From: a virus
Lineage: Duplodnaviria; Heunggongvirae; Uroviricota; Caudoviricetes
Virus record (IMG/VR): IMGVR_UViG_648276650_000010
Location: 1 to 19,602 of that record
Reading direction: 5' to 3' (one strand)
Length of the DNA: 19,602 nucleotides
Shown: one piece after another, positions 3,100 to 19,602 of the stretch
Position numbering within the stretch: position 1 is the stretch's first letter
Layout of the letters: each line of letters starts with the position of its first letter
The notes under the pieces: model-generated
Told to the model about the DNA's origin: nothing
Databases searched by the model: none
The model's input: only the letters and a program-made list of their open reading frames with translations
Position numbers and translations under genes: made by a program

Positions 3100-3133
3100 T
3101 TTTGTTTCCCTTTGTTGAGTTTTCTTTTATTTA

Positions 3134-3480: not shown

Positions 3481-3497
3481 TTGTTCTCCTTTTGACT

Positions 3498-4040: not shown

Positions 4041-4237
4041 TAGTTCACTCCTGACATCAGAAGCGTCCCAAATGTTTTTATCTGTTCTTCGCTGATAAGA
4101 ATCATTTTAGGTGCTTTAATATCGAAAGCTTGCAGAACAGGAACAGCAACAGTGTTATAAGTTATAGTAACGAGAAATAGAACAATAAGATAATCTTTAG
4201 CGTGTTTTGCCAATGCTTGGAGATATTTCATTTTCAT
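4040..4237 (-). CDS. small membrane protein, 65 aa, one predicted TM helix
   Basis: ATG at 4237-4235 with a GGTG SD 5 nt upstream. Hydrophobic segment YLIVLFLVTITYNTVAVPVL. Overlaps the 3' end of the endonuclease gene by 41 nt and is coupled to the downstream 180-aa gene. Confidence 0.45.
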   Translation of the reverse strand: MKMKYLQALAKHAKDYLIVLFLVTITYNTVAVPVLQAFDIKAPKMILISEEQIKTFGTLLMSGVN

Positions 4238-4673
4238 ATTTCACCTTTATTTGGTTTGAGTAGACTTTTTCAAGCTCCTTTTTCGTTTTAAGGTTTGAAC
4301 CTGTAATAGCTTTCATCTCAGAAAGATTTTTTCGAGAGAACGCCTTCTTTAAATCAGGAATAAGTTGTGGATGCGTAGGATTGTCTGAGTAGTCTTTTTC
4401 AAGATACTGAACAAGATTCTTCAAAAACTCGATGTAGTCAATTTTCCCATCGAGACCCGAACGTTTAAACTGATGTTTTATTCTGCCCTCTAGGACGTTT
4501 GCTTGAGCGATTAATAATCCTCTGCATCTGCCTGCGTTAGAGCCTGTTAATATATGGTCATGGTCAAGATGGGCTTTATTAACTTCATGAATCTTTATGC
4601 CAGTTAAAGCACAAAGACCTTTTTGCTTTTGAAAGAGTTCTTGCTTATAAATCGGAATCTCTTTTCTTTTCAT
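4197..4673 (-). CDS. T4 endonuclease VII (gp49)-like nuclease, 158 aa, with degenerate zinc-binding site
   Basis: ATG at 4673-4671 with a GAGG SD; ATGA overlap with the upstream 94-aa gene. The segment HLDHDHILTGSNAGRCRGLLIAQANVLEGRIKHQFKRSGLDGKIDYIEFLKNLVQYLEKDY aligns closely with my recollection of T4 endo VII (HLDHDHELNGPKAGKVRGLLCNLCNAAEGQMKHKFNRSGL...). The catalytic Asp/His/Asn/Glu positions appear retained, but three of the four Cys Zn ligands are replaced (by T, I, A). Confidence 0.8.
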   Translation of the reverse strand: MKRKEIPIYKQELFQKQKGLCALTGIKIHEVNKAHLDHDHILTGSNAGRCRGLLIAQANVLEGRIKHQFKRSGLDGKIDYIEFLKNLVQYLEKDYSDNPTHPQLIPDLKKAFSRKNLSEMKAITGSNLKTKKELEKVYSNQIKVKYENEISPSIGKTR

Positions 4674-4954
4674 TTTCCTCTTAGAACTGCTAGGTCGATA
4701 TCTAGCTTTGCTGTTCTTCCTTCTAAATTCTTCAAATCAGATTTGACCTCTCGAAATTCATCCTGTTGTCGTGTTATATCGCTTATAAGCGAAGCATCTT
4801 TTGCGTCATTAACGGCTATGCTTTTTTCGATGTCTGAGAAACGTTTCTCAAGGTCAATTCGTTTTTCATTGTTTGATTTAATTTCGGCATAAACCCAAGC
4901 CAAGAAACCTCCTAGAGCACCCAAGATGGAAATGATCAGTGCTATATCGACCAT
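4670..4954 (-). CDS. membrane-anchored coiled-coil protein, 94 aa
   Basis: ATG at 4954-4952 with two AAGGAG-type elements upstream. N-terminal hydrophobic helix (IALIISILGALGGFLAWVYA) followed by a charged heptad-like region. Function unknown; i-spanin-like or exclusion-like topology. Confidence 0.6.
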   Translation of the reverse strand: MVDIALIISILGALGGFLAWVYAEIKSNNEKRIDLEKRFSDIEKSIAVNDAKDASLISDITRQQDEFREVKSDLKNLEGRTAKLDIDLAVLRGK

Positions 4955-4999
4955 CTTGAATCTCCTTTTTAAAAGACCTCCTTGTCTTTATTTAGAACG

Positions 5000-7900
5000 T
5001 TATTGTTGTTTACTGATAAAGTAAACTGCTCTTGCTGCGGTCGCATGATTCAAGTCAGCACCGTAACTCAAATCAACAGCTTGTCCCGCATAGATAATGC
5101 CTGTACCACCGTTTGAACCACTCATTGCACTGGTAACTGTTCTTACGATTTCTTGACCGTTCGACATATTAATCCATGCAGTTCCGTAGCCCCAAGCACC
5201 ACCGGAATAAGTTCTGCCTGAAATCGAAAGGTTTGGAATAGAAATTACTCTGTTCCAGTTAACAGCAGGAATATGAACTGTTGTCCACGGATCTATATGA
5301 CCCATTTTGATAACGTCACCTTCAATTCTGTCAGCGTATACAGTTCCTGTGAAATAACCTGAACCGCCTCTGATTTCACCTGCGAAATAACCAGAATCTG
5401 CTTGAATGTTACCTCTGATATTAACGTTTTGGAAAGAAGCCCAACCGTCTTTTCTGATTGTCCAACCTTGAGTACCACCGGAAGGGAACCAGTTATCAGA
5501 AGATATTTCATAAGCAATCTGTGCTGAACCGATCTGAGCATTACCAATTTTCGCAGTAGTAATCGCACCGTTTTCAATCTTCGCGTTGTTAATAGCACCG
5601 TTTTGAATCTTAGCGTTGTTAATAGAAGCATCTGCAATCTGTGCTGAACCGATAGAAGCATTACGAATCATTGCAGAATCCATATAAACTCTGTTATCAG
5701 CGACCATAAACGGAGCAACAGCACCCGCAGGAGTATTGTTATTCGTTATAGCGATTTTATCAGCGTTAAAAACAATACTAGACTGTTTTGAACCGTCAGG
5801 ATTCTTATTAGCCAGCATACTGATACCAGCAACAACACCGTCGGCATTAGTCTGAACTGCCCATTTGCTATTAATCGTTCCTGTTAAGTCGTCAACGCTT
5901 GCTTTTGATTCTTGACTAACTGTTGCAATAGCTGTGTTTGTTTCAGCTTTCAATTGATTAATTGAACTTGCGGTTGCTTGTCTATCATCAGCTTGAGTTT
6001 TTTCAACTTTCGTAATAGCCGAGTTAAGTTTTCCATCAAAGTTAGATTCTTGAATACTGATAGCCTGATTGATAGCGCCATTAGTTTCATTAGTAATCTG
6101 AGTATGAAGTTCGGTGTTTTTCGTCGTGATAGTCTGATTTAATTCAGTAGTAACTTTTTGCTCGGATGCTGTAACTTTCGTATCAGTGTATTTGTTAGCG
6201 AGGTCTAATGCTTCATCGATAGCACCATCAACACGTTTATCCAAATCAAGCAAATCGTTTAACTGTTCTTTCATATCGTCAGTCCACGGAATATCCCATT
6301 TCATATCGATAAACTTCGATTCTGACCAAGTAATCTGGTCTTGTCCGAATACGTCATACCAAGCTGAACGAACATAGAATTGACCATCTTCTAATGGAAA
6401 ATTATCTAAGAACGGACTTGAACTTGAATAAACGTGAACAATTTCATTAAAACTCTGGTCTTTCGCAATATGAACGATTGTGCCTTTGAAGTCAGGAACT
6501 TCAGGCTTATTATCGCGTGGGTCATTCCAAGAGCACATCAGCATTCCAGGACCATTCGAAGCTGTGAAACCTTGAATAGCAGGAGCTTGATTGTTCTTAA
6601 CAGTAATAACAGCAGGATCTGACTTCATACCAGCGTGACCGTATGCAGTAACAGAAACTTTCAATTCACGACTCAGACCATTACCCAAGTTCATATTAAA
6701 GTCATATACAAAACCTAAGTCTTTAGTCTTGTAAATTACAGGACGCTGACCTTCAATTTTGATTTCGTAATATTGAAAAACTTCACCGAATGTCTGTAAC
6801 GTGTCGTCAACATAGAATTTCTGTGCGCTCTGGTCGTCCCAGGCGAATTCAAATTGAGTCTTGTTAGTGGTGTATTGATTTTCAACTGCGTTCACTAGGT
6901 GCAGTCCTGTAACGACTGGTAAGTTATACATAACCTCAGGGTTAACGTTATTGACATAAACCCAATCTGAACGATACACAACACCAGAAGCACAAACACG
7001 AATATCAAATTTCTGATTAGGGTCAAGACTCATAATCAAGAAATAATCGCCTGATGTGAAACCTGCTTGAATCCAAGAGTTCTTACCAGCAAGACTATAC
7101 TGAATATAATAACCTGCGCGATTATAATCAGGTTCAGACGTCCATTGAACTTTCAGAGTTCTTCCTAAAGCTGTTTCAGCAACTGCTTTAACTGTCAGAT
7201 TCTTAGGAGCAATCAGAACAGATTTATTAGGAATGTTGCTTCCTGTGTTATCAGGGTCTTTCGCGTAGTCAAGATTGGTATAAACTTCTTCGATATATTC
7301 AGAAGCAGTAATAGTAACGATACCAGCAGCACCTTTATTCATCGAACGATCGATATTAGTAATACGCCATAATGAATTCACAAGTTCCAGTTCAGAGAAA
7401 TTAACTCTGATAACATCCCAGACCTGTGCGGTATAAGCATCAGCAGTTGAAAAACTAATAACTTGCTTTAACAGAGATTTGTTACGTTCGATTGAAGCAA
7501 TTTTATCCAACTGAGATTTTGATTTCACGAATCTGTAACTGATATCTTTAGCGATAATACGTTTATCTTTCGCGATTGTTCCATCATTTGTTACGTCAGA
7601 CGGATAACGCAGAACTTGGTCAGAATAGTCAATCGACGGATCTTGATATTTCACGTTCAGAGTATTGTAATAATTCTCAGAACCGCCATCGTTTAAGCTA
7701 ACAGTACCAGCGTTAATATTATCTTCGTTGAAGTCATATTGAACAACATCAGGTCCATCGATTCTGCATGTTACTTTACCGAAAGTCTCTGTGATAATAC
7801 CGTTAAATGCACCTGCAAGCTGAGTTAAGTTTTCTTTGAATGAACCGTTCGGGTCAGTTGCACCATCAGAAAATAAACTGTTCAGTTTTGCATATCGAGC

Positions 7901-8689
7901 AGCTTCTTTAAAACTATCAAGGTCGATTTTATCAATCTGAATTCCAAGACCGTATCTATCATTTGTTAGATAATCAACAATCTGACTCGGACCGTTGTTC
8001 GAGGAAACGCGTTCTCCTGTGTTCAGATCTGTAATCAAACGTCCTCTAACGTCAACAGATACTTGACTGTTAGGTTGCAGGATATCAGCTTGGTTTTGAA
8101 GGTCTGAGTTACGTTTGCGCATAACAACACAACAAGCAGCGATGTTATTACCAGTAGCAGAATCAGGCCAGCCAGCATCTGAATTTCCTAGATATTTCTG
8201 AGCAAGAGTAAAAACGTGACCGTATGGCTTACCAGTTGAGAATTCAACTTCAACATATTGCTGATATTCAGCAGCGATTGAACCTTTCGGAAGAACACCG
8301 TCTTTATAAACGCCATCAAGTAAGATTTTCTGATTATCCATATAAAGGTTTTTGAAGCTATCAACTTCACCTTCACAGATTGCAAAGATCTGAACCAAAT
8401 ATGTCGTATCAACGCCAACAGCTTTCCAAACGTTAATCGTACCTGTACGCTGTTCACCATAGATAATAGGAATAACACTTGATGGATCTGACGTTGTTCC
8501 TAATGTCGTTGCTGTGTCTGTGCTGTTAAATCGGGGAACGTTCTGCGCCATCTGAGTTGACATCAAAGCAGAAACAGCAGCAACAGCGACACCAATACCA
8601 ATTGCCAAAGCAAGAGCAGCACCCGCAGCGTAAGCAGCAGCAGCCGCGGAAGCACCTGCGATAATTGCACCAATAGCTACAATAGCCAT
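5000..8689 (-). CDS. lambda J-like tail tip / host specificity protein, 1229 aa, with hydrophobic N-terminal extension
   Basis: ATG at 8689-8687 overlaps the upstream stop (TAATG). The region PIIYGEQRTGTINVWK...YLVQIFAICEGEV matches the conserved N-terminal motif of J-type tip proteins; the C-terminal region (FMVADNRVYMDSAMIRNASIG..., NIRGNIQADSGYFAGEIRGG...) resembles the lambda J C-terminal receptor-binding region as I recall it. Confidence 0.75.
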   Translation of the reverse strand: MAIVAIGAIIAGASAAAAAYAAGAALALAIGIGVAVAAVSALMSTQMAQNVPRFNSTDTATTLGTTSDPSSVIPIIYGEQRTGTINVWKAVGVDTTYLVQIFAICEGEVDSFKNLYMDNQKILLDGVYKDGVLPKGSIAAEYQQYVEVEFSTGKPYGHVFTLAQKYLGNSDAGWPDSATGNNIAACCVVMRKRNSDLQNQADILQPNSQVSVDVRGRLITDLNTGERVSSNNGPSQIVDYLTNDRYGLGIQIDKIDLDSFKEAARYAKLNSLFSDGATDPNGSFKENLTQLAGAFNGIITETFGKVTCRIDGPDVVQYDFNEDNINAGTVSLNDGGSENYYNTLNVKYQDPSIDYSDQVLRYPSDVTNDGTIAKDKRIIAKDISYRFVKSKSQLDKIASIERNKSLLKQVISFSTADAYTAQVWDVIRVNFSELELVNSLWRITNIDRSMNKGAAGIVTITASEYIEEVYTNLDYAKDPDNTGSNIPNKSVLIAPKNLTVKAVAETALGRTLKVQWTSEPDYNRAGYYIQYSLAGKNSWIQAGFTSGDYFLIMSLDPNQKFDIRVCASGVVYRSDWVYVNNVNPEVMYNLPVVTGLHLVNAVENQYTTNKTQFEFAWDDQSAQKFYVDDTLQTFGEVFQYYEIKIEGQRPVIYKTKDLGFVYDFNMNLGNGLSRELKVSVTAYGHAGMKSDPAVITVKNNQAPAIQGFTASNGPGMLMCSWNDPRDNKPEVPDFKGTIVHIAKDQSFNEIVHVYSSSSPFLDNFPLEDGQFYVRSAWYDVFGQDQITWSESKFIDMKWDIPWTDDMKEQLNDLLDLDKRVDGAIDEALDLANKYTDTKVTASEQKVTTELNQTITTKNTELHTQITNETNGAINQAISIQESNFDGKLNSAITKVEKTQADDRQATASSINQLKAETNTAIATVSQESKASVDDLTGTINSKWAVQTNADGVVAGISMLANKNPDGSKQSSIVFNADKIAITNNNTPAGAVAPFMVADNRVYMDSAMIRNASIGSAQIADASINNAKIQNGAINNAKIENGAITTAKIGNAQIGSAQIAYEISSDNWFPSGGTQGWTIRKDGWASFQNVNIRGNIQADSGYFAGEIRGGSGYFTGTVYADRIEGDVIKMGHIDPWTTVHIPAVNWNRVISIPNLSISGRTYSGGAWGYGTAWINMSNGQEIVRTVTSAMSGSNGGTGIIYAGQAVDLSYGADLNHATAARAVYFISKQQ
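5514..5653 (-). repeat. intragenic tandem and direct repeats in the J-like gene
   Basis: Exact 20-nt direct repeat gcaatctgtgctgaaccgat at 5514-5533 and 5634-5653 (120 nt apart, in frame), with 30-nt-period near-repeats at 5561-5620 between them. Encodes a periodic motif (IGSAQIA ... NNAKIQNGAINNAKIENGAITTAKIGNAQ). Confidence 0.8.
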
Positions 8690-9105
8690 TATTTTCTCCT
8701 GTTAAAAATTAATTCAAAATTAAAATCGTTGACGTTTATCAGTTGATATTTATTTTCATGTTCAACTAATGCTCTATTATTAAAAACGATAGATGCAACG
8801 TAATAGACACGGTTTTTATGTTTTTTCTTAATTAAGATAACCGAGCCTGTTTCTATAGTTTCTGATTTCTCAAGATGCGTTTCACACGCTTCGAGAACGT
8901 TATTAAAACCAGTTAGCTCTTTGCAAATCTTGAGACCTTCAGGAATACTCGTGTATTTGTCTTTTAATTTGTCTGTGTATTCAGTAGCACAAACAAGGTC
9001 GATATATTCAGCAACAAGGATATTACAGTCGTTTTGACCGAAAACGTGTTGCTGATTGATATAGCGGTTAAGTAATTTTGATAAGTCAGCTTGAAATTTA
9101 AACAT
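8689..9105 (-). CDS. hypothetical Cys/His-containing protein, 138 aa, translationally coupled to the J-like gene
   Basis: ATG at 9105-9103 with a GAGGTGA SD; stop overlaps the J start. Motif GQNDCNILVAEY plus downstream His residues could fit a papain-like fold (speculative). Position suggests a tail tip assembly role. Confidence 0.5.
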   Translation of the reverse strand: MFKFQADLSKLLNRYINQQHVFGQNDCNILVAEYIDLVCATEYTDKLKDKYTSIPEGLKICKELTGFNNVLEACETHLEKSETIETGSVILIKKKHKNRVYYVASIVFNNRALVEHENKYQLINVNDFNFELIFNRRK

Positions 9106-9132
9106 GTTTCACCTCTGACTTTATTTAGAGCC

Positions 9133-9161
9133 AAAAAAAGACCCCTTGCGGAGTCTTTTTA
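9133..9161 (-). terminator. intrinsic terminator after the 158-aa gene
   Basis: On the minus strand: GACUCC-GCAA-GGGGUC (6-bp stem with one U-G wobble, GNRA loop) followed by seven U. Stem at 9140-9155, A-run at 9133-9139 on plus. Begins 7 nt after the stop at 9163. Confidence 0.7.
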
Positions 9162-9162
9162 A

Positions 9163-9639
9163 TTAATCACTTGATGTCAAATCAACAACACCAGAAACAA
9201 CAGGACCACCATCAACACTCAGTGTCATTGTCAGACCTTGAACTTCTGATTCACCGCCATTATGAACAGCGCTTGACAAGAAGCCGTTATAAACTTTTGC
9301 AACACCCAGTTTTTTAGTAGCATCAATCCAATAAACGATTTTAAACTGACCACGTTTACCATCTTCCGCAAGCTTAATCAGAACATCATGAACGCTTTCT
9401 GGAATATAGTTAACGGTCAAGTCGATATCAGGAACAGAGCCACGACCAACCAGTTTACGGGAGTATTTGTGAGAGAAGTTAGGAGCTGTAATAACTTCGC
9501 GTTCAATACCCGTAGAAGGGAATGCACCAGTTTCAGGAATTTCAACAAACTTTTCTGAATTCAGATCGGTGTTTGCAATTTCTGAGTTATAGAACACACT
9601 GACGTAAGAGCCAGCAAAAATATCAAATTTGTCTGCCAT
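9163..9639 (-). CDS. hypothetical acidic beta-rich protein, 158 aa, probable virion structural protein
   Basis: ATG at 9639-9637 with an AGGAAA SD; stop TAA at 9165-9163. No TM segment or signal peptide. Bracketed by terminator-like hairpins on both sides (stand-alone transcription unit). Fold and function not assignable from sequence alone. Confidence 0.55.
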   Translation of the reverse strand: MADKFDIFAGSYVSVFYNSEIANTDLNSEKFVEIPETGAFPSTGIEREVITAPNFSHKYSRKLVGRGSVPDIDLTVNYIPESVHDVLIKLAEDGKRGQFKIVYWIDATKKLGVAKVYNGFLSSAVHNGGESEVQGLTMTLSVDGGPVVSGVVDLTSSD

Positions 9640-9680
9640 TTTTAATTTCCTATTTGAGTTAATATAGTTTATTTAGCAAA

Positions 9681-9699
9681 GGGGATTTCTCCCCTTTTT
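9681..9699. terminator. terminator-like hairpin directly after the tail fiber stop
   Basis: GGGGA (9681-9685) pairs with TCCCC (9690-9694) around a 4-nt loop. On plus it is followed by TTTTT (9695-9699); on the minus strand only by UUU, so minus-strand termination is probably partial. Confidence 0.5.
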
Positions 9700-9700
9700 G

Positions 9701-12700
9701 TTATTTAGCTTCAAGTTCTTTAACGCGAGCACTTAATTCCTTGATAGCATTAACCAGCAACGCGTTTACAGCAGCAGAGTTAACACCAAGAATTTCGTCA
9801 GGTCCGAAAGAACTAACAGCTTCTGGTAATACTTCTTTCAGTTCTTGAGCAATAATACCTGCTTCACGAACTTCGAATGAATATTCAGTTTTGACTAAAT
9901 CAGATTTCTTATCGTATACGTAACCAGTAAGTTTCTCGACTTTATCAACTGCGTTTTCAATTTCTTCAAAGTTCGATTTCAGACGTTTATCAGAAGTGCT
10001 AACCCATTGGATCGCATTTGCTGTTCCATTACCGAGGAATAGATAGTCTGCACCACCAATGTGAAGTGCAGCCTCGGGAGCAGAACTACCCGGATTATAA
10101 ATGTCCATCGCAGCACCGTATTCTGTGCCCCAATGAACATGTTTCCAGATATTAATACATTTATCACGAGTCTGAGCTTCAACAATCATTCCCGCAGGAC
10201 GATCACGCCACGCTGACCACTGCGGCCAACCGTCAACGACACCTTGAATCATCGCATTGCTTGCCCCGGTTCTAACGTTTCCAACATAAACACCGCGAGA
10301 CTCATTATGGGTGTTAATCGTAATTGACCGATCAATTGTCAAACCAGCTGTGTTAAAGGTTGCGATTTGAATACCATTAGTAAAAATGCTTAAGTTTCCG
10401 TCCGTAACTTGTCGAATACCTGTATCGTTATCACCAAACGCGATTGAGTTTCCACCTAGTACGTTGTCCGTGTTAATACCAAAACTTGTTAAACGATTTG
10501 TTTCAACAGAAGGAGTATTAATTTTTCCAGGAACAGCAAAACGACCATCGATATCAAATTCATAATTAGCCATTTTACCGAACGTCGATTCTTCTTTCGT
10601 CCCAACACGAAGAATTCCTTTGCCCCATGAATTAGCTGGTCCTCTAATAGTTCCTAATTCAACAACAGTAGAGAATCCGTGTCCTACGGAAACAGAGTTC
10701 ATCGAATATCCGGGATAATAATCACTTTCACCAGCAACTGCTCCGAAGTTAATCTGCATAGGAGCATTTTGTCTCCATTGATTAGCGTAAGCATGATCAT
10801 TGGTTGCTGCCCATCTTGCACCATCAATTTGAATTGTATTATGCTGAATATCCATCGCGGTATTAGTACCAGTCTGAACCGTCACGGATCCGTTAGTTCT
10901 AAGAGTAACACCAGATGACGTAGAGAAATCATTTCTCATATTCTGAGACCAGACAATATCGAGATTCTCACTTGTCTTGCCAAGAATCCAGGTATTATTG
11001 CGACCGTCCATATTGCCAGACATATAACTTGCCTGATTCGACGCAGGAATATTCAACTGAATAGCATTAGATTCGCCGTTGACAGAAACACCACTTGCAA
11101 GATTCAATCGACCATTGGTGTTTAATGAACCCATCCAATATTCAGGAGTATCACCATGAAACCAACATATAGAGTTATCCAGCCTATCGTCAGGATGATT
11201 AGCCATTGCCAACTCATGATAAATGGATCCAGCACCAACGGCTCTAACTTTTCTTAAATGATTTGATTGTTGCTCAGGAGTGTTCCAGTCGGGTAAGCTT
11301 TCCGAGTCATACCATCCGTAAGGCTTATTATTATAAATCGTTTTATAGAAACTTGCAGGGCCAGCAACACCAAGACCTTCTTTAGTATCAATATAAGTTC
11401 TGCCTGAACCTCTCAGATAATGATTATATTTTCCACCATTAACTAATCCGAAATAAGTCGTGGCGTCACCAATGTTATTACCGTCGGTTGTCGTATCGAT
11501 ATTAATTAATGAATAACCTTCAGGAGCCATCAGATTCGAATCACCATCATCACTTCTGAAACGGAAATGAGTTTTTCTATTAAAGTAGTTTTCAGATCCT
11601 GCAATAGAAGCTGTTACAACGTTATTTGAATAGAAGTTTAACCATCCGTCTTCTCTCCATTTAAAACCAGTGTCGGAATCACCAATCGCGATAGAGTTTA
11701 AACCCAGTGAATTTCCAACGGCAAAGTTGCTTGCAACGGACATTAAAGGAGTTGTTACTGCATCAGTGATTCTAGCTTGACCTGAAATATCAATTGACAT
11801 TCCTCTGCCTGTTTTTCCCCAAGTCATGGTCATTAGATCTAATGCGTCGGTTCCTTCGTTAGCATCACGACGAAATAACAGTCGATCATCCGTATCCGTT
11901 GCGTATGCAATTTGATGAATAGTCTTTGAAGTTCTGCCGTGGTTTTCAATACTCAGAACATCACCGTTATTACCAGCAGGTGTAACTTTCAAAGTTCCTG
12001 CGTATACATTACCAGCAGCATGAACAGAAGGAACAGTTAAGTCGCCAGTCATCGTGTCGCCAGCTTTATTAACTTTGGTGTCAATCATGTCTTTCAGAGT
12101 CTGATTATCAACAGTCAAACGGTCATTAACTGCTTTAATCTTTTCGTCAGCATCAGCTTTATTCGCATCAACTTTCGTATTAATAGCCGTGTCGTTCTGG
12201 TCAACTTTTGAATTCAGATTATCAACGCGAGTGTTAATAGCAGCGTCGTTAGCATCAACTTTCTGTTCGAGTTTCGTCAGGTCAGCACTTGAACCTGTTT
12301 GAACTTTGCTGATTTCAGAATCAACGTAATCTTTACGCGTAGCGCTATCAGGAGCAACAGGAGCAGCAGGCAAAGATAACTGACCATTACCGTTAAGCAC
12401 GAAGTCAGAACTCTCTCCTGTACCTTTTCCTTTCGCTACCGTAACACGAAGTTCACCTTTAGAGTCTGTCTGAGCAGGAGAACTAATACGTGCTTTTGCT
12501 TTGTCGTGTTCATCAGCAAAAACAATATCGCTTTTATCAAGATTTTTTAAAGTCAGATTAGAATCGGATTCAATATCACTTGCTTTAATTTTTCCAGTAA
12601 AGGTCTGACCGCCTTCAACAACAGCATCAGCACCATTACCGATGTTAATAACAGCGTCACCGAATTTAGTAAAAATCTTTTTATCGGCTAAGTTAATAGC

Positions 12701-12784
12701 GATTTCACCATCAAGCATGTTTTTCGCTTCTGGCTTTCTTCCGGCGACGTCTGTTCTATAATGTTTAACTTTATTATTTGCCAT
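9701..12784 (-). CDS. tail fiber protein, 1027 aa, with C-terminal intramolecular chaperone (peptidase S74-type) domain
   Basis: ATG at 12784-12782. N-terminal fibrous repeats (VDxNDxAINTxVD) and a DTMTGDLTV motif typical of phage fibers. C-terminal WVSTS-DKRLKSNFEEIE...YVYDKK...EAGIIAQELKEVLPEAV...NAIKELSARVKELE matches the auto-cleaving chaperone domain seen in endosialidase-type tailspikes and L-shaped fibers. Confidence 0.8.
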   Translation of the reverse strand: MANNKVKHYRTDVAGRKPEAKNMLDGEIAINLADKKIFTKFGDAVINIGNGADAVVEGGQTFTGKIKASDIESDSNLTLKNLDKSDIVFADEHDKAKARISSPAQTDSKGELRVTVAKGKGTGESSDFVLNGNGQLSLPAAPVAPDSATRKDYVDSEISKVQTGSSADLTKLEQKVDANDAAINTRVDNLNSKVDQNDTAINTKVDANKADADEKIKAVNDRLTVDNQTLKDMIDTKVNKAGDTMTGDLTVPSVHAAGNVYAGTLKVTPAGNNGDVLSIENHGRTSKTIHQIAYATDTDDRLLFRRDANEGTDALDLMTMTWGKTGRGMSIDISGQARITDAVTTPLMSVASNFAVGNSLGLNSIAIGDSDTGFKWREDGWLNFYSNNVVTASIAGSENYFNRKTHFRFRSDDGDSNLMAPEGYSLINIDTTTDGNNIGDATTYFGLVNGGKYNHYLRGSGRTYIDTKEGLGVAGPASFYKTIYNNKPYGWYDSESLPDWNTPEQQSNHLRKVRAVGAGSIYHELAMANHPDDRLDNSICWFHGDTPEYWMGSLNTNGRLNLASGVSVNGESNAIQLNIPASNQASYMSGNMDGRNNTWILGKTSENLDIVWSQNMRNDFSTSSGVTLRTNGSVTVQTGTNTAMDIQHNTIQIDGARWAATNDHAYANQWRQNAPMQINFGAVAGESDYYPGYSMNSVSVGHGFSTVVELGTIRGPANSWGKGILRVGTKEESTFGKMANYEFDIDGRFAVPGKINTPSVETNRLTSFGINTDNVLGGNSIAFGDNDTGIRQVTDGNLSIFTNGIQIATFNTAGLTIDRSITINTHNESRGVYVGNVRTGASNAMIQGVVDGWPQWSAWRDRPAGMIVEAQTRDKCINIWKHVHWGTEYGAAMDIYNPGSSAPEAALHIGGADYLFLGNGTANAIQWVSTSDKRLKSNFEEIENAVDKVEKLTGYVYDKKSDLVKTEYSFEVREAGIIAQELKEVLPEAVSSFGPDEILGVNSAAVNALLVNAIKELSARVKELEAK

Positions 12785-12796
12785 TTTCTTTATCCG

Positions 12797-13822
12797 TTAA
12801 AATACTCCTGCGTCTAAGGTTTCTCCTAACGCTACACAATTAATCTCTAATGGCGTTGGTTTATTACTTGGAGAATAGACTTCTTTGCCTTTGACCTTGA
12901 CAGAAGTTGAGTTAATTTCATTACTATTTAGAGCCAAGATTTCACCTTGTGGCGCAGAAATCTTTTTACGAACGTTCAGATATTCCTGAATAGTCAAAGA
13001 TCCTTTGAGTTCTCCACCAGTAATAGGCAAAGCATTAATATCTTCAGGAGTTGGACGTTCAAGTTCTGTATAGACTTTGACCCACGGAGATTCAGTAACA
13101 GTTTCACCGCTTTGTTGTTTGTTTCTGATTCTGATGCTTGGATTACCGACTGACGAACCAATAAGCTCCCAACCTTGACCATCAGGATGCTGAATAGCCA
13201 TAGCAGACGTGCCAGAGTTATAAGGGTTATCGCTGTTTGTTGCATCGACTGTTACACATCTGTTACCAGTTAATAATCCTAAGTCTTTAACGCCTGCGAT
13301 TTCTTCTGTACCAGCACCAATACCATAATCGCCAACGTTTAACGGAACTGAGAATTCAGCAAAACCTGTAAACAACTGACCATCAGGAGAAAGATTAAAA
13401 GTTGTTGTAACGACTGAGTTAGCCGAACCTGATGTTTCTTTCTTCGTTACATAAGCATTAAAAATATGATAAAGACCAGCATCATTATCTTTCTTTGTTT
13501 CTCCATCGATAACATAAAGACTTCTGAATCTAAGGAGTTTCTTTTCCATAAGAGCTTCATCAAGCAACTGATAAACTGGGTCAGAACTGTCTTCAAATAA
13601 GCTTATTGAAGTGTCGTTAATTGTTACGTCACCTGAAAGTTTCGTTGTGAAATCGGTTCTGTAATCTTCTAGTGTCTGAACTTCTTTTCTAAATCCGATA
13701 ACAGGGAATGCAGCCAGTTTATCAGTGCTTACATAACCTGGGTCGTTATATCCTGGGATTTCAACGATTAGCGGATTAACTGAAACTCTGACGTTATTTC
13801 CTACAAAAATATCGTTTGTCAT
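12797..13822 (-). CDS. major tail protein, gpV-like, with C-terminal Ig-like extension, 341 aa
   Basis: ATG at 13822-13820; stop TAA at 12799-12797. Position is right after the gpU-like gene. The segment NDTSISLFEDSSDPVYQLLDEA...LLRFRSLYVIDG resembles the lambda V pattern [23 protein letters not shown]...AYKIRFPNG as I recall it; C-terminal ~100 aa is beta-rich and Ig-like. Confidence 0.6.
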   Translation of the reverse strand: MTNDIFVGNNVRVSVNPLIVEIPGYNDPGYVSTDKLAAFPVIGFRKEVQTLEDYRTDFTTKLSGDVTINDTSISLFEDSSDPVYQLLDEALMEKKLLRFRSLYVIDGETKKDNDAGLYHIFNAYVTKKETSGSANSVVTTTFNLSPDGQLFTGFAEFSVPLNVGDYGIGAGTEEIAGVKDLGLLTGNRCVTVDATNSDNPYNSGTSAMAIQHPDGQGWELIGSSVGNPSIRIRNKQQSGETVTESPWVKVYTELERPTPEDINALPITGGELKGSLTIQEYLNVRKKISAPQGEILALNSNEINSTSVKVKGKEVYSPSNKPTPLEINCVALGETLDAGVF

Positions 13823-13829
13823 TTTAGTC

Positions 13830-14228
13830 TCACATTAAGTATTCGAAAGTTAAAATTATTTGTGCGCTAACATGACCATTTGATGCTTCACTATCATAAT
13901 CAGTGAAGCTCGAACTTGGATAAATCTTATCGATTTTAAATGGGATAAGTTTTTCATGATTAGCTTTAATAGAAATTAAGTCGTAAACGGCTTTGTGAAC
14001 GCCTGTTTCGCTTTTCTCTGAGAAAATATCAATCGTAATACTAAGAACACTTGCAAGTTTCGATTGCAAACCGATTCGCGTATATTCTTCTGTCATTCCT
14101 GGAATCATTACTTGAACAGGTTCTTTAACACCAGTTGTGAAAGCGTTTTTGACGTATTTCAGATTAAGTTCTTTAACGATTATTTCTTCCAGAGCGCGTT
14201 TAATTCCTAAACGTGGCAGATTAGTCAT
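13830..14228 (-). CDS. tail terminator protein, gpU-like, 133 aa
   Basis: I place the start at the internal ATG at 14228-14226, which overlaps the upstream stop by 8 nt; the ORF-track start at 14306 would overlap the upstream gene by 86 nt. C-terminus DYDSEASNGHVSAQIILTFEYLM resembles the lambda gpU C-terminus (DY..DDAG..SADLTYVITYEM) as recalled. Confidence 0.6.
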   Translation of the reverse strand: MTNLPRLGIKRALEEIIVKELNLKYVKNAFTTGVKEPVQVMIPGMTEEYTRIGLQSKLASVLSITIDIFSEKSETGVHKAVYDLISIKANHEKLIPFKIDKIYPSSSFTDYDSEASNGHVSAQIILTFEYLM

Positions 14229-14517
14229 AGAATGATGTCTCCTGTTCGCCTTTAAATGCCAGATAACAATTAGCAAGTCCTGAACCATCATTAACAAGAT
14301 ACGCAATGGTATACAGAATCTCGTTTAATAGAACTTCATCTTCTTGCTTAACTTTATTGATATCAGCGGTTATATAGATTGTCTCGCTTACTTGTCCGTT
14401 ATCGTTGTTAATCTCAATTTCAACAATACCGAGTTCATCAGAATCGTTAATTTTGATTTTCTGTCCGAAACGAGTTAAGAAAGACTGTTTTTGTTTTTCT
14501 GAATATGGAAAAATCAT
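14221..14517 (-). CDS. head-tail joining (neck) protein, 98 aa
   Basis: ATG at 14517-14515 with an AAGGAGA SD; first gene after the capsid terminator. Small and acidic, in the position of a head completion/connector protein. No specific family assignable. Confidence 0.5.
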   Translation of the reverse strand: MIFPYSEKQKQSFLTRFGQKIKINDSDELGIVEIEINNDNGQVSETIYITADINKVKQEDEVLLNEILYTIAYLVNDGSGLANCYLAFKGEQETSFYD

Positions 14518-14552
14518 GTTGTCTCCTTTTTATTATATTTAGTCCAGAAACG

Positions 14553-14576
14553 AAAAAAGGACTCCCGAAGGAGTCC
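14553..14576 (-). terminator. strong intrinsic terminator after the major capsid gene
   Basis: On the minus strand: GGACUCC-UUCG-GGAGUCC (perfect 7-bp stem, UUCG tetraloop; stem 14559-14576) followed by UUUUUU (14553-14558 on plus). Lies about 50 nt downstream of the capsid stop. Confidence 0.85.
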
Positions 14577-14597
14577 TCTGATTATTCAGCAGTTTCA

Positions 14598-14627
14598 GCT
14601 TTCGCTTTCGCTTTTGCTTTTGCTTTT
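14598..14627. repeat. five tandem hexamers (GCTTTC x2, GCTTTT x3 on plus; AAAAGC/GAAAGC on the mRNA) immediately 3' of the capsid stop
   Basis: Read directly from the sequence. Starts 1 nt after the stop codon (14629-14631) and ends before the terminator hairpin. Confidence 0.8.
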
Positions 14628-14628
14628 C

Positions 14629-16533
14629 TTAGGCTTGTTTTTCGTGCAGGAACAGACGATCATCAGCACAAACTTTCCAATCGATATCAGCCCAAACGCG
14701 AGGAACGATAGCGCCTTTGTTACGGTAAGTTGTGTCGTCTAGGTCAAGAGCAAGACCTTCCCACTCAGCTACGGTTACAGCAGAGAAGTCACCAGAGATA
14801 ACCTGACCTTCTTTAACAAGACCGGAACCGATAACATCATGTCCGCCCAGTTTGTTCAGGTCGTCGATGATATAACCAGCAACACCAGCGTCACGCAGAG
14901 TGGTTTTCAAATCACCTTCAAGAGCAGCAGCCATCAAATATTTGAACTTGTCCATTGCTACGCCGTCGCCTTTAGCTTTAGCAGCTTCAACAACGAATTC
15001 TTTGTAGGTCATTCCCATCTGTTTTGCTACTAACTGAGCAACGATAGACTGAGGAGCTTTTGCGTCGGTAATAGAACCGAACATCAGACCTTCCAGTTTA
15101 GCGCGTGAGAAATTCACGATATGGTCAGAAATGAACGCACCCAGATTAGGCAGAGTCAACAGAGCTTGACGAGAAATCGGGTTACCACCAGTAAATGTCT
15201 TAGGCATAAACTGAATGTTTTCGAATTTGCTTTCGCCTTCTGGAGATTCACCGTTTTCATCAACGAAACCGAATGCATCAACACTTGATTTTGTCTGCTT
15301 AGGAACAGAAATCGGAGTAGTCAGACCAGTCAGGAAGTTAACTCCCAGCTTATCAGCAACAGTGTCTTTCAACAGCATTTCAACGAATGAATCATAACGC
15401 TGAACAGTTTCTTGTACTGCGGAAACAGTTGATACAGTGTTAATAGCGCGTTTGCCTTGCAGAGCACTAACTGGCATATAGATACCTTGAGAAACGTTAG
15501 CACCGCGCATCAGACGCTTACGGGACATTTCTTGAGTATATTCAGCAGCAGCACCGCGAACAGCTTTACCATTCATCATAGAGCGAACAGCATCGCCAAG
15601 GTCGAATTTATTTTCCAGAGTTTGTTTAGTATCTTTAGTCATGTTGCGAATCACCGTTGCAGATTTATTAGGTTTAATAGAGCGTTTGAATTGACGTGCG
15701 GTCATGCCTTTAGCGATAGCGCTTGCAACGTCTTTCTGTGCTACTTTGTAGCGTTGTGCGATTTCAAGAATTTCTTCCGCTTCTTCTTCGCGTTCTTCTT
15801 CTGTCAGTTCGTCACCAGCAGGAACAGCAGCAGGAGCGTCATCAGTTTTTTCAACAGCAGAATCACCAGCGTTTTCATTTTCAACGACTACTTCTTCCAG
15901 AATTTCTTCACGCTTTGCACGATCTTCATCGGACAGCATTTCAATTTCATCGATAGTCATTTCTGCCAGTTCATCTTTAGTCATTTCATCAATACGTTTC
16001 ATTCGAGTACCTTTGTTAAGTTTGTTTGTTGTATCTGTATTTAGTAGTCTTCCCAAACCGACTTTATCGTCAGCAGGAACAGTGACGAAAGAAATTTCAT
16101 ATGGTGCCCATTTCGTAACAATAAGATTGTCGCCTTCTAAGTGATATTCATTAATGTCATATCCGAAAGAGATTTTACTAATTGTTCCTTCTTGAACTTT
16201 TGCACCGATTTCTTTAGCTAATTCACCGTGTTGACTGAATTGGACTTTTGCTCGTCCTATTTTGTCTTCATCGATTCGAACAGAATCAGGAATAACGATT
16301 CCCAAGTGTTTATCAAAATCATGGTTAAACAGCAAAGCAGCACCGTTATTAATTCGGGTCAAGTCAGCGTTATGTGAGCCGTCATGAACGAGAATTTCAT
16401 TAACAGTAATGTTTTGACCGTATTCATCCTGAATCTGTCTTTCAACAGGAGTTTCAGAACTGAACGCAATTTCAAAAACACCATCAACAGAATCAATACC
16501 CTGAACTGTGTAATCGCGCTTAAGTTTTAGCAT
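14629..16533 (-). CDS. fused prohead protease / scaffold-like linker / HK97-fold major capsid protein, 634 aa
   Basis: ATG at 16533-16531 with a GAGGA SD. Residues ~1-177 carry the prohead protease signature (ISFGYDINEYHLEGDNLIVTKWAPYEISFVTVPAD, as in HK97-type U35/S78 proteases). Residues ~178-270 are acidic and helical (DELTEEEREEEAEEILE). The C-terminal ~360 aa look like an HK97-type capsid protein. An in-frame internal ATG with SD lies at 16002-16000 (M178). Confidence 0.8.
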   Translation of the reverse strand: MLKLKRDYTVQGIDSVDGVFEIAFSSETPVERQIQDEYGQNITVNEILVHDGSHNADLTRINNGAALLFNHDFDKHLGIVIPDSVRIDEDKIGRAKVQFSQHGELAKEIGAKVQEGTISKISFGYDINEYHLEGDNLIVTKWAPYEISFVTVPADDKVGLGRLLNTDTTNKLNKGTRMKRIDEMTKDELAEMTIDEIEMLSDEDRAKREEILEEVVVENENAGDSAVEKTDDAPAAVPAGDELTEEEREEEAEEILEIAQRYKVAQKDVASAIAKGMTARQFKRSIKPNKSATVIRNMTKDTKQTLENKFDLGDAVRSMMNGKAVRGAAAEYTQEMSRKRLMRGANVSQGIYMPVSALQGKRAINTVSTVSAVQETVQRYDSFVEMLLKDTVADKLGVNFLTGLTTPISVPKQTKSSVDAFGFVDENGESPEGESKFENIQFMPKTFTGGNPISRQALLTLPNLGAFISDHIVNFSRAKLEGLMFGSITDAKAPQSIVAQLVAKQMGMTYKEFVVEAAKAKGDGVAMDKFKYLMAAALEGDLKTTLRDAGVAGYIIDDLNKLGGHDVIGSGLVKEGQVISGDFSAVTVAEWEGLALDLDDTTYRNKGAIVPRVWADIDWKVCADDRLFLHEKQA

Positions 16534-16548
16534 TACCAGTCCTCTGTT

Positions 16549-16580
16549 GGAGCGTCTTTCGACGCTCTTTGTTTTTCTGA
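16549..16580. promoter_or_regulatory. stable stem-loop in the portal-capsid intergenic region, terminator-like only in plus orientation
   Basis: GAGCGTC (16550-16556), loop TTTC, GACGCTC (16561-16567), followed on plus by TTTGTTTTT. On the minus-strand mRNA it forms a GAAA-loop hairpin 17 nt upstream of the capsid SD with no U-tract after it. Confidence 0.45.
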
Positions 16581-16592
16581 ATGTATTTAGTG

Positions 16593-18143
16593 TTATTCCA
16601 CCGAGTTATCCGAATTAATTTCAGCAACTTCCACTTGAGCATCAGCCGTTAATGCAGCAGGTGCAGCAGCAACTTTAATTTGATTATCGTATTTCGGAAC
16701 ATAACGAGTTCTTTCTTGTTCAACCTGAGCAAATACAATATCCGGGTCTTCACCGCGAGCAATAATAATATCAGAAGCAGATTTGAATCCGTTTTCAACA
16801 TCAAAAATATCCTTCTGAGTATCTTTAATTGGGTCGATACTTTGCCATTGAGGATATGTCCAAACAGTCTGACGAAGAACTGAAGGAATAGTTGTCATTT
16901 TCAAATTAACGGTTTCTCTGATAATTGACCATTGTAACCAACGTTCAAAAATAACATCAAAAACCTGTTCTTTAATATTACGCTGAACTGATTTAAACAT
17001 TACGCGTTGTGCAAGATCACCGAAGCGGGCAGCAGAATAGTTAATATTTGCTGTGTCACCTTTCCAACCTTGTTTGTAAAAACCGTAACCCATAGCAAGC
17101 AGGTCTTCCAGACGATTCGTGAAGTTCATAAAGTCGTCACCGCCCTGAGTAGAGCTAAACTGCTTTATATCGTAACCAGCAGGAAGTTTATGAATTGTCC
17201 CTGATTCAAAGTTTTGAATAACATCAGGAGATTCTTCAATGCCTTCGTTATCGCTATCAATTTCGATATTATCTTGACCGTCTTTGTCTTGAGTGATGAA
17301 ACCCATAGAGCTTGCTGCGGCGCGTTTCTGAATCAACGTTGCTTTTGTGAAAGCATCATATTGGTTCATAACATCAATATTCGCTACACATTCAGGAATG
17401 CCTCTGCGTTGATCAGGGAACAATTCTCTGTAATAGTGAATAATATTTTCAGCGTCGATACCTTCAGATTTACCAGATGAAGTCTGTGTTGCTTTGCTTA
17501 TTGTGTTAAACCAGTAACGAACTGGAACATCATCGTTATTATATTCGATACCATCAAGAACATAACCGTTGTCGGAGGTTTCTCTGTCGCCAAATTTACA
17601 GCGTGAAGCTTCGATAATTTCAAGCTTAAATTCAGTATCAGATTCGTGAATACGAATAAAAACCTCGCCGTCAACAAATCTTGAACGTTCAACGAGTTCT
17701 TGAAATCTGCGCCAGTTCATTCTTTCATTTTTACTGAAACGTTTTGCTGAACTTGACCAATAGCTGAACTGGTCCATAATCATAGAGTTCAGTTTCTTGC
17801 TTGGCTTTCCGTTTGTTCCCAGAATACGCAATTGTGGGTTAATACCTTCACCGATAACGTTATCAACTTGATATTGAACAGCACGTTTACCAACTGGTGT
17901 ATTAATCGAAAGAGTTCGAGACATATTACGAATGCCATCGGCATAAGTTCGAATCTCGTTATTAATCGTTGCAGTCGTAATCAGGTTCTCTTGAAAGTCG
18001 CCATCTAAACGGTCAGTTCGAGGACCAAGAATACGCTGTAACTGTGAGCCATATGCTTGCTCGTTATCAATTACCAGTTTCTGTTTCTGTTTACGTGTTT
18101 TCGGTTCTGCTTTTTTAAATGTGAAAAAATCTCTAATACTCAT
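16593..18143 (-). CDS. portal protein, lambda gpB-like, 516 aa
   Basis: ATG at 18143-18141 overlaps the upstream stop (ATGA). Size, position between the terminase/W-like genes and the protease-capsid gene, and overall sequence character fit a lambda-type portal. Confidence 0.85.
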   Translation of the reverse strand: MSIRDFFTFKKAEPKTRKQKQKLVIDNEQAYGSQLQRILGPRTDRLDGDFQENLITTATINNEIRTYADGIRNMSRTLSINTPVGKRAVQYQVDNVIGEGINPQLRILGTNGKPSKKLNSMIMDQFSYWSSSAKRFSKNERMNWRRFQELVERSRFVDGEVFIRIHESDTEFKLEIIEASRCKFGDRETSDNGYVLDGIEYNNDDVPVRYWFNTISKATQTSSGKSEGIDAENIIHYYRELFPDQRRGIPECVANIDVMNQYDAFTKATLIQKRAAASSMGFITQDKDGQDNIEIDSDNEGIEESPDVIQNFESGTIHKLPAGYDIKQFSSTQGGDDFMNFTNRLEDLLAMGYGFYKQGWKGDTANINYSAARFGDLAQRVMFKSVQRNIKEQVFDVIFERWLQWSIIRETVNLKMTTIPSVLRQTVWTYPQWQSIDPIKDTQKDIFDVENGFKSASDIIIARGEDPDIVFAQVEQERTRYVPKYDNQIKVAAAPAALTADAQVEVAEINSDNSVE

Positions 18144-18634
18144 GATGGATTCGTGAACCTCGCTTTAATAGTAACAATCGGAGATTTACCGTTTGCCATT
18201 TGTTCTGACTTAATCAGATTTGCTAAGTTAGCTAAAAGTCGTTTTCGAGCCATAAGCAGCGAATCAAGCGTTTCATAAACGAATGATTTACCGTTAATAC
18301 TCATTTGTTGAATAGCTTCTTCGTTACTTGTCAGACGATACTGAATAACTGTATCGATATCGTTAATCATTTCTCTGAGTTGTTCTCTTTTCGTTTTTGA
18401 AACGAATGGTGATTTCACTTTGATAATGCTGTTACTGATAAGCGCACCTTCATAGAGAACAACAACAGAAAAAGTTCCTTCGATAAAATCTGATGTGTCC
18501 ACCGAGATATTCGCTGGACAATCAGTTTGAGAAAACAATTTAGTTTCAGTTGAGCCTATGGAGACTGTTGCACCTTCAGGATTATAAACAGCGAGTTTTT
18601 CACCGATGTAAATTTCTGAATTTGATTTTTGCAT
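18140..18634 (-). CDS. gpW-like head-tail joining protein with ~85-aa N-terminal extension, 164 aa
   Basis: ATG at 18634-18632 with a GGAGAA SD; lies between terminase and portal as lambda W does. The C-terminal ~75 aa (INGKSFVYETLDSLLMARKRLLANLANL...) resemble lambda gpW ([23 protein letters not shown]...) as recalled. The N-terminal beta-rich half has no counterpart in 68-aa gpW. Confidence 0.55.
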   Translation of the reverse strand: MQKSNSEIYIGEKLAVYNPEGATVSIGSTETKLFSQTDCPANISVDTSDFIEGTFSVVVLYEGALISNSIIKVKSPFVSKTKREQLREMINDIDTVIQYRLTSNEEAIQQMSINGKSFVYETLDSLLMARKRLLANLANLIKSEQMANGKSPIVTIKARFTNPS

Positions 18635-18654
18635 TGAGTTCTCCTTTCTTATAT

Positions 18655-19602
18655 TTATAATCCGAAACCACGAGGCTTATTAACTGGTCTGTTTCGTTTG
18701 ATAATGTTTCGACGAGGTTCATGAGTTTGAATAACAGGAGAATTTGTTTCGTTTTGTTCTTCTGGCATTTCAATATCAGATTTAGCAGCGAGTTTCCTCC
18801 ACTCGTGAAATTTGATTTTCTCTAGAACTTGCAGACGCGCGCAATAACCGTAGTTAAAGCAGTCAAGACCTTCGTTACGAACACCGCCTTGTTTAATAAC
18901 CCATCTAACAGTATTACCAGAGCGTTTTAATTCTTCGGACATAAGCTGTTCGCAGTAATCATCTGGAACATCATCAGAGATTTCGACTCTGACTGGTGTA
19001 TTTCCAGATTTCACGCTTCTGTTTAGCAGTTCACGAACTAAGTTTTTTCCTTGGTTTACACCAATCATATAAAGTTCATAACCACCGGTTTTCGTGATTT
19101 TCGTTGGAACATAAGGGGCATCAACAGAGCTGGCACCTTTAATTGCTTTCAGGTTTGTCCACTGAGAGCAGAAACGATAGATTGTTTTAGTTGCTCGACC
19201 GTTTGAGCTATCGACGTTCACCCACGCTAAAGGAACCTTTCTTCCCAAAGCTGTTCTGAACGGTGCTTTAACGTATGCAAGAAGTTCTTTATAAGCAGGG
19301 GAATCGATAACCTCAGCGTTCATTGTCATAAAGCTACGATGTGCAAGAATATAAACGGTTCGTTCGTTGTGACCCATCAAGGTTACTTCTAAACGGTCTT
19401 GCTGTTGGTCAACCCCAGCGGTTAAAAACAACGTGTCTTCTGGTATATTGCTGATGCCGATATTCGTCTTGAGTGTTTCTAATTTACTAACCTCAATGTC
19501 TTCGTTTAAATCATCAAACGGTAGACCAAGAACAGTGTTATAAAACGTTGACAAGCTGAACGTTTGCCATGCTGACCTGCCCCCAGGATTAGATACAACC
19601 GT
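18655..19602 (-). CDS. terminase large subunit, C-terminal part (5'-truncated by the window edge)
   Basis: The frame is open from the window edge at 19602; the ORF-track start at 19554 is a TTG and probably internal. Stop TAA at 18657-18655. Sequence character fits the C-terminal nuclease domain of a lambda gpA-type terminase. Confidence 0.85.
   Translation of the reverse strand, partial: TVVSNPGGRSAWQTFSLSTFYNTVLGLPFDDLNEDIEVSKLETLKTNIGISNIPEDTLFLTAGVDQQQDRLEVTLMGHNERTVYILAHRSFMTMNAEVIDSPAYKELLAYVKAPFRTALGRKVPLAWVNVDSSNGRATKTIYRFCSQWTNLKAIKGASSVDAPYVPTKITKTGGYELYMIGVNQGKNLVRELLNRSVKSGNTPVRVEISDDVPDDYCEQLMSEELKRSGNTVRWVIKQGGVRNEGLDCFNYGYCARLQVLEKIKFHEWRKLAAKSDIEMPEEQNETNSPVIQTHEPRRNIIKRNRPVNKPRGFGL

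Follow-up and report, generated by a model that had tools for sequence, protein, structure and literature searches.

How many proteins does a phage make from a gene in which a maturation protease, a scaffold-like region and the major capsid protein share one reading frame, and what sets the number of proteases that enter a shell? The question is raised by a 634-aa open reading frame (ORF; positions 14629..16533, (−) strand) in a 19,602-nt stretch of DNA from a virus of the Caudoviricetes (IMG/VR record IMGVR_UViG_648276650_000010, positions 1 to 19,602; this whole stretch is referred to here as the window). The capsid of roseophage R4C, which has a full-length homolog of this gene, is a T=7 shell with 415 copies of the capsid protein (PMC10276861). 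If every subunit had a protease, such a shell would receive 415 proteases together with 415 scaffolds. A first-pass annotation of the window had drawn attention to an in-frame ATG at 16002-16000 (codon M178), located after the protease, and had proposed it as an independent start. Here we present comparative evidence that a conserved internal ribosome-binding site after the protease domain probably also yields a protease-free scaffold-capsid protein as a second, predicted product of the same gene.

Domain organization of the fusion ORF

The ORF starts with an ATG at 16533-16531, separated by a 6-nt spacer from a Shine-Dalgarno (SD) sequence, AGAGGA (16540..16545; calculated duplex energy −5.8 kcal/mol), and encodes a protein of 69.8 kDa; this and, unless stated otherwise, all other elements of the gene lie on the (−) strand. 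Pfam detected Peptidase_S78 (PF04586) at residues 63–156 (E 1.4e-10, 41.9 bits against a cutoff of 21) and Phage_capsid (PF05065) at residues 380–623 (E 1.3e-6, 28.5 bits against 24.2). The profile phrog_617 covers residues 3–621 with its positions 8–612 of 626 (E 1e-78), and PHROG 4523, which also matches the ORF, bears the name 'major head and protease protein'. Together with an AlphaFold2 (AF2) model of the 634-aa protein (mean predicted local distance difference test score, pLDDT, 72) and Foldseek comparisons, these matches bear out the succession of protease, linker and capsid domains that the first-pass annotation had read from the sequence.

Residues 1–151 (16081..16533) form a β-rich domain in the AF2 model (pLDDT 75–89), which Pfam, the model and an alignment with HK97 gp4 identify as a prohead serine protease of the Peptidase_S78, HK97 gp4 type. 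H65 and S114 of gp4, which we take to be its catalytic His and Ser (residue numbers of Duda et al. 2013), align with H71 (16323-16321) and S122 (16170-16168) of the fusion protein, and both residues are invariant in an alignment of 20 homologs with 42–91% identity (alignment A1). Because capsid matches filled the Foldseek list, the protease assignment rests on sequence evidence. A tether follows at residues 152–177 (16003..16080), which is indel-rich in alignment A1; the pLDDT falls below 50 over residues 152–178, and the disorder stops exactly at M178, where the tether ends.

The helical, scaffold-like (delta-like) region spans residues 178–371 (15421..16002), as judged from the model, composition and alignment. 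Helices were modeled with moderate confidence within residues 186–359, with disordered breaks at 220–242 and 288–299. An acidic helical linker had been described here; its helical nature agrees with the model, and its acidity holds for residues 178–250 (38% D/E, net charge −20) but not for residues 251–359, which carry a net charge of +9. A conserved core lies at about residues 250–285, with E250, E254, I255, A272, F282 and R284 invariant in alignment A1. On its own, the linker (residues 178–372) gave no PHROG match and showed no sequence likeness to any known scaffold family; domain searches on the three segments, as earlier suggested, thus found families for the protease and the capsid protein but not for the linker. 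A disordered junction (residues 360–381; 15391..15456), which according to the model and homology to R4C contains the probable maturation cleavage site, leads into an α/β domain that extends to the C-terminus. This HK97-fold major capsid protein (residues ~372–634; 14632..15420) was identified by Pfam, by PDB entry 8GTA and by Foldseek, with TM-scores of 0.72 to 8gta (R4C capsid) and 0.70–0.74 to HK97 gp5 structures. A 195-aa antisense ORF with a TTG start (15457-16044, (+) strand) overlaps the linker-coding region and probably owes its existence to the purine richness of the sense strand; no Rfam RNA family was found in the window.

A search across 5.8 billion proteins at E≤1e-10 returned 2,280 matches, and both Pfam domains were present in every match listed. 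The protease-capsid fusion also occurs in the annotated phages VP882, phiHAP-1, ECO1230-10, Persinger, RcCronus, R4C and S-CBS1. The window gene is 100% identical to a gene in a chromosomal element of E. coli 2021CK-01361 (RefSeq NZ_CP107720.1), which the Prokaryotic Genome Annotation Pipeline (PGAP) annotates as one coding sequence (CDS); the ORF is likewise unbroken in IMG/VR contigs, and it is intact and identical in 39 database members. The first-pass annotation had named two ways in which its reading could fail, namely a lack of any protease-family match in residues 1–177 and a frameshift or sequencing error that separates two genes; Peptidase_S78 matches residues 63–156, and thousands of homologs have the ORF in one piece. 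Given this continuity, the existence of PHROG families of its own and an R4C virion chain that comprises only the C-terminal part of the gene product (see below), the fusion is, on the available sequences, real and not a sequencing error. Split-gene relatives were sought among the loci missed by a motif filter, and all of these were same-frame fusions except L112, an IMG/VR copy from a 42%-identity group, which bears a frameshift near residue 345. Another damaged IMG/VR copy (L024/L042) has a premature stop after residue 567 and is otherwise 100% identical.

A conserved candidate start at the protease-scaffold boundary

The ATG of M178 (16000..16002; site 1) lies 15 codons past the C-terminal motif of the protease and is followed by an AAA codon. 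The SD-like element noted earlier is present upstream of it as AAAGGT (16009..16014), formed by a K and a G codon and separated from the ATG by the 6-nt spacer ACTCGA. Initiation here would give a predicted product of residues 178–634 (50.1 kDa). As the calculated SD duplex is only −3.9 kcal/mol, SD and ATG are weak evidence in this gene alone, and their significance derives from comparative tests. We collected ~120 loci, which fell into 28 clusters at 60% identity, and looked for an in-frame ATG no more than 45 codons from the C-terminal protease motif, counting an SD as strong at a duplex energy of ≤ −5 kcal/mol.

A site-1 ATG was present in 24 of the 28 clusters, standing 9–35 codons after the protease. 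An SD of ≤ −5 kcal/mol preceded it in 16 of these 24, compared to 9.6% of 311 other in-frame ATGs (Mann-Whitney p=2.3e-9) and to a background of 13.7% of all linker positions. Strong site-1 SDs include AGAGGTG in VP882, GGAGG (−9.3 kcal/mol) in the 42%-identity E. coli prophage group and AAGGAGGT (−12.3 kcal/mol) in loci L039/L040; in R4C, the SD GGAGGA precedes an internal ATG at codon 189. By the same measure, the SD of lambda Nu3, used as a positive control, scored −6.9 kcal/mol. Within the clade of the window (64–100% identity), the linker is rich in indels, yet an ATG with AAGG(A/T) 6–9 nt upstream is always present. The SD is rebuilt there in different codon registers, as AAA-GGT (K-G), AAG-GAA (K-E; phage DCP80), GAA-GGA (E-G) or ACA-AGG-AAA, the last of which uses the rare Arg codon AGG. 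Across the lineages with site 1, protein identity is 25–40%, and the linkers are otherwise unalignable.

The mRNA around these ATGs is predicted to be open. The 60 nt that surround the site-1 ATG were much less structured than the gene average in each of the 16 clusters with a strong SD (Wilcoxon p=3e-5); the corresponding folding energies in the window are −2.0 and −9.1 kcal/mol. Local G+C content falls around site 1 even in GC-rich genomes. We also ran an unbiased scan for ATGs resembling a translation initiation region (TIR-like), defined by an SD of ≤ −4.5 kcal/mol and a place among the most open 15% of positions. TIR-like ATGs accounted for 14 of 37 at site 1 and 9 of 45 at a downstream site 2 (see below), compared to 0/42 in the protease, 2/30 in the mid-linker and 0/180 in the junction and capsid region (Fisher p=1.3e-13). 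Site 1 was also enriched when set against the composition-matched mid-linker (p=0.0035). M277, a conserved Met of the linker that served as a negative control, showed no SD (−0.65 kcal/mol) and structured RNA (−11.8 kcal/mol).

Two further lines of evidence come from the proteins. Among 77 fusions of ≤50% identity, 56 have their first Met 5–40 residues past the protease motif, where 40 were expected (p=1.3e-4). In addition, stand-alone relatives of 400–450 aa match the module that runs from M178 to the C-terminus, and one of these (P0241) begins three residues before the M178 equivalent. A consensus scan revealed no sigma-70-like promoter within the fusion gene; the short product would therefore arise by internal initiation on the same mRNA. 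ATG, SD and predicted open mRNA are thus kept family-wide at the protease/scaffold boundary. The conserved ATG and SD and the open, AT-rich mRNA across lineages support the proposal that M178 may act as a start in its own right, and they suggest that a conserved internal ribosome-binding site probably gives rise to a protease-free scaffold-capsid protein.

A second candidate site

A second candidate for an internal start (site 2), which the first-pass annotation had not noted, is codon M298 (15640..15642), which precedes the capsid-fold motif by about 84 codons. In the window it is preceded by a weak SD, ACGGTGA (−3.0 kcal/mol), in locally open mRNA (−3.1 kcal/mol). Clades that lack site 1 (L032, L033, L037, L038, L102 and L004) each possess a TIR-like ATG about 55–86 codons before the capsid-fold motif, and equivalents of site 2 also occur in L051 and L055. 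Both sites are present in three clusters, and at least one TIR-like site is found in 20 of the 28. Relative to the composition-matched mid-linker, the enrichment at site 2 was not significant (p=0.18), and site 2 therefore remains a lead. A start at M298 may give a still shorter product, consisting of a delta-like domain and the capsid protein. We tentatively raise the possibility, itself rather doubtful, that fusions of an S78 protease and a capsid protein are generally multi-product genes, in which sites 1 and 2 serve as alternatives or in combination, lineages keep one or both, and translation tunes the protease dose and the scaffold mass per procapsid; tripartite genes with a ClpP-type protease, as in Gifsy-2, would perhaps behave alike.

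Predicted processing and the mature capsid protein

The only solved structure found by sequence was that of the roseophage R4C capsid protein (PDB 8GTA; E 5e-31). The R4C gene (MK882925.1, 5455-7344) encodes 629 aa, and the 8GTA chain corresponds exactly to residues 362–629 (268 residues), the published capsid model being renumbered from 1. Because the deposited chain starts at residue 362, neither the protease nor the linker is part of the R4C virion protein; a family member thus has a virion protein without the N-terminal ~360 residues, which include the equivalent of the helical linker. The R4C paper (PMC10276861) contains neither 'protease' nor 'cleav' and leaves the N-terminal S78 domain unmentioned. 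The start of the R4C chain aligns to about S371|A372 of the window protein, inside the disordered stretch of residues 360–381. This alignment points to a probable maturation cleavage near S371|A372, with the exact position deduced from the homolog, and the mature capsid protein would be a predicted ~263 aa and ~28.7 kDa.

Proposed mechanism and alternative explanations

Based on these results, we favor as the probable explanation that the locus is a nested gene, which gives rise to a full-length protease-tether-scaffold-capsid chain and to a scaffold-capsid chain starting at M178, with a protease dose that would be set by the ratio of the two starts. One mRNA would thus yield two same-frame proteins. 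The full-length chain would carry an HK97-type serine protease tethered to the helical scaffold domain and the capsid protein; the M178 chain, comprising only scaffold and capsid protein, would correspond to HK97 gp5, delta domain included. The two chains may co-assemble via their capsid and scaffold parts, with their N-terminal parts facing the interior of the procapsid, such that the protease would be carried in by covalent linkage and no targeting peptide would be needed. How often each start is used would then set the number of proteases per shell, and the protease would subsequently remove everything upstream of about residue 372 to leave a capsid protein of ~29 kDa. If this holds true, a conserved internal start would explain, in a simple and testable manner, both protease dosing and encapsidation without a targeting peptide.

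A number of observations weigh against an internal start. AAAGGT in the window (−3.9 kcal/mol) falls below the threshold of our scan and is weaker than the SD of the annotated start (−5.8 kcal/mol) and those of relatives (−5.6 to −6.2 kcal/mol); the internal SDs of the window are the weakest in its clade. Eight of the 28 clusters have no TIR-like ATG, and six are without site 1, on account of which assembly from full-length chains alone may be viable. AT- and purine-rich linkers inflate both SD-like and openness scores, an effect that the mid-linker control removes only in part. The clusters are not fully independent phylogenetically, and gene starts in distant clusters were assigned approximately. 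Several clusters without a TIR-like site are metagenome-assembled genomes of Verrucomicrobiota, in which the gene starts, as approximately assigned, also lack an SD, and the test is therefore low-powered there. Finally, a strong SD (CAGGAGGGCGA-ATG, −10.8 kcal/mol) also precedes codon 309 of lambda C (L126), an ATG that lies in frame within Nu3. We know of no product that starts at this ATG; its score indicates that an SD plus an ATG alone gives false positives.

These points bear most directly on an explanation in which only the full-length polyprotein is made and each capsid subunit brings a protease, the internal ATG and SD being incidental or a relic of a fusion between a gp4-like and a gp5-like gene. 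The clusters without site 1 or without any TIR-like ATG and the weak SD of the window are as expected from it, as is a linker composition that favors SD-like purine runs (13.7% of positions at ≤ −5 kcal/mol), and a relic start is plausible given the stand-alone scaffold-plus-capsid genes of relatives. Decay would be expected of a relic; ATG, SD and openness nevertheless persist at 25–40% protein identity amid unalignable linkers, and the rebuilding of the SD in different codon registers, with the rare AGG codon among them, the enrichment of site 1 over the composition-matched mid-linker and the presence of site 2 in clades without site 1 also speak against incidental or relic sequences, such that we regard this explanation as unlikely. 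SD-like sequences inside ORFs have also been proposed to pause ribosomes, a notion that is disputed. A pause at the domain boundary that aids co-translational folding of the protease would account for the position of the motif exactly between protease and tether; pausing would not call for unstructured flanks or an ATG 6–9 nt downstream, which are found together here, and it leaves the conserved Met unexplained, and we therefore consider a mere pause site highly improbable.

A different question is whether the gene is in use in this particular element. The large terminase subunit, TerL (18655-19554, (−) strand), retains only the gpA nuclease domain (299 aa, with PF20454 as its sole match). At the identical RefSeq locus (L041), a copy of the insertion sequence IS5 (ISEc68) lies directly upstream of TerL and a second IS5 copy splits a DUF1983 tail gene, which is whole in the window (5000-8689). 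The host element thus looks defective from its sequence, and with TerL cut down beside IS5 the gene may not be in current use in this strain, a further point against internal initiation at this locus. The gene could then be an unused remnant in a decaying prophage, its weak internal SDs, the weakest in the clade, reflecting relaxed selection; the premature stop and the frameshift in the damaged copies described above fit such decay. On the other hand, the ORF is intact and identical in 39 database members, the catalytic residues and both internal ATGs are intact, and the GGA-to-GGT change that weakens the SD also occurs in an 85%-identical relative (L025) and, being common to both, is not private decay. 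We consider a remnant possible but doubtful; it would be compatible with the nested-gene mechanism at the level of the family.

Relation to known protease, scaffold and capsid genes

An in-frame start with its own SD just after the protease is also found in lambda C/Nu3, in UL26/UL26.5 of HSV-1 (herpes simplex virus 1) and in gp17/gp17.5 of the archaeal virus HFTV1, where the nested genes have been demonstrated by ribosome profiling (Ribo-seq; bioRxiv 10.64898/2026.09.13.751334). In these nested genes, one ORF gives rise to two scaffold proteins, one joined to the protease and one free of it. The proteases belong to different families (S49/ClpP-like in lambda, assemblin in HSV-1, S78 in the window), and the capsid protein is a separate gene in all three systems, whereas the nested product predicted here would contain it. 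The analogy to lambda C/Nu3 drawn by the first-pass annotation is thus apt for the in-frame start just past the protease but not for the content of the nested product, and the arrangement is probably best described, as far as the sequences tell, as the lambda C/Nu3 scheme extended to the capsid protein.

HK97 gp4/gp5 share with the window gene the S78 protease and the capsid fold. In both cases the capsid protein also has an N-terminal extension, a scaffold domain in HK97 and a putative one in the window protein, which is cleaved off by the protease in HK97 and is predicted to be so in the window. In HK97, however, protease and capsid protein are encoded by two genes, and the targeting of gp4 is non-covalent and relies on a C-terminal extension of ~60 residues. 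According to the alignment, this extension is missing from the window protein and the tether stands in its place; the scaffold-like region comprises ~190 aa, compared to 102 aa in HK97. R4C has a full-length homolog, a 629-aa gene with an SD-preceded internal ATG, but at only ~25–30% identity.

Protease, scaffold and capsid protein are also joined in single ORFs of ~690 aa in Gifsy-2, whose 'tripartite capsid gene' is attributed to Effantin et al. 2010 (Virology 402:355) as cited in PMC8538268, and in Pseudomonas phage MD8, whose gp5 is a single-gene protease-scaffold-capsid protein (PMC8508860). Both differ from the window gene in having a ClpP/S49-type instead of an S78 protease. The MD8 paper makes no mention of an internal start. 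The Gifsy-2 gene (L125; NC_010393, 22471-24561) has an in-frame ATG at codon 221, preceded by the SD GAGGAG (−8.8 kcal/mol), at the boundary between the ClpP domain and the linker, which points to a like nesting with a protease of an unrelated family. Tripartite fusions and nested protease/scaffold genes are thus each already known; we found no report of the combination, that is, of a protease-capsid fusion that contains a conserved internal start, in a literature search that covered few subscription journals. If correct, the proposal joins the HK97 design, with the scaffold fused to the capsid protein, to the lambda design of nested protease and scaffold. Protease-capsid fusions are common, with thousands of phage and prophage genes that include the tractable VP882 and R4C, and are currently annotated merely as 'major capsid protein' or 'prohead protease'. 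The value of the present analysis lies in family-wide, testable evidence and a possible second site; it is relevant to annotation, to virion proteomics, to cryo-EM models and to the engineering of capsids or encapsulin-like containers.

Genomic neighborhood and host element

The likeness to lambda extends to the surroundings of the gene. The head genes are ordered gpA-type terminase, gpW-like head-tail joining protein, lambda-family portal and fusion gene; given these neighbors, the head module is lambda-like, with one gene in place of lambda C/Nu3, D and E. At the RefSeq locus, the element sits on the chromosome between ybiT and ldtB and also encodes a serine recombinase, a retron Ec67-family reverse transcriptase/endonuclease and a TIR-domain protein. 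An origin from a large phage or phage-plasmid, considered in view of 130–200-kb contigs and the record of Escherichia phage DCP80, was dismissed, as close plasmid matches were lacking and the element proved to be a chromosomal prophage. The DCP80 record itself (PQ671644.1; L001) comprises 141 kb and is classed as Straboviridae/Gaprivervirus; its left end bears this lambda-like head module (64% identity in the fusion protein), and nearly all of its CDSs are labeled hypothetical. The record may have been assembled chimerically or classified wrongly.

Two other candidate connections were rejected. The 42%-identity E. coli group had been considered as the capsid of an Stx2 phage, but the capsid protein of Sp5 is a member of a P22/N4-like family (PMC5155283). 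A prohead protease 'fusion' described in a preprint on escape from the cyclic-oligonucleotide-based antiphage signaling system (CBASS) is no parallel, as it concerns protease-scaffold proteins of T1-like phages.

The tail module occupies positions 1-12784 ((−) strand) of the window and has an unusual order, in which genes for a 1027-aa tail fiber and a 1229-aa J-like central tail fiber precede the tail assembly chaperone, and the chaperone and a 799-aa tape measure come after both fiber genes; an endonuclease VII gene (4197-4673) lies within the module. Between the portal stop codon and the SD of the fusion gene, a stable hairpin, GAGCGTC-GAAA-GACGCTC, is found at 16549-16568. It is kept in relatives via compensatory stems (AGAGACTC/GAGTCTCT, GAGCAAC/GTTGCTC, AGAGCGC/GCGCTCT and GGGGGC/GCCCCC) with GNRA or UUCG loops. 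In the window, the hairpin qualifies as an intrinsic terminator when the (+) strand, antisense to the head genes, is read, but not when the sense strand is; in HK97, this portal/protease junction is likewise annotated with a putative terminator.

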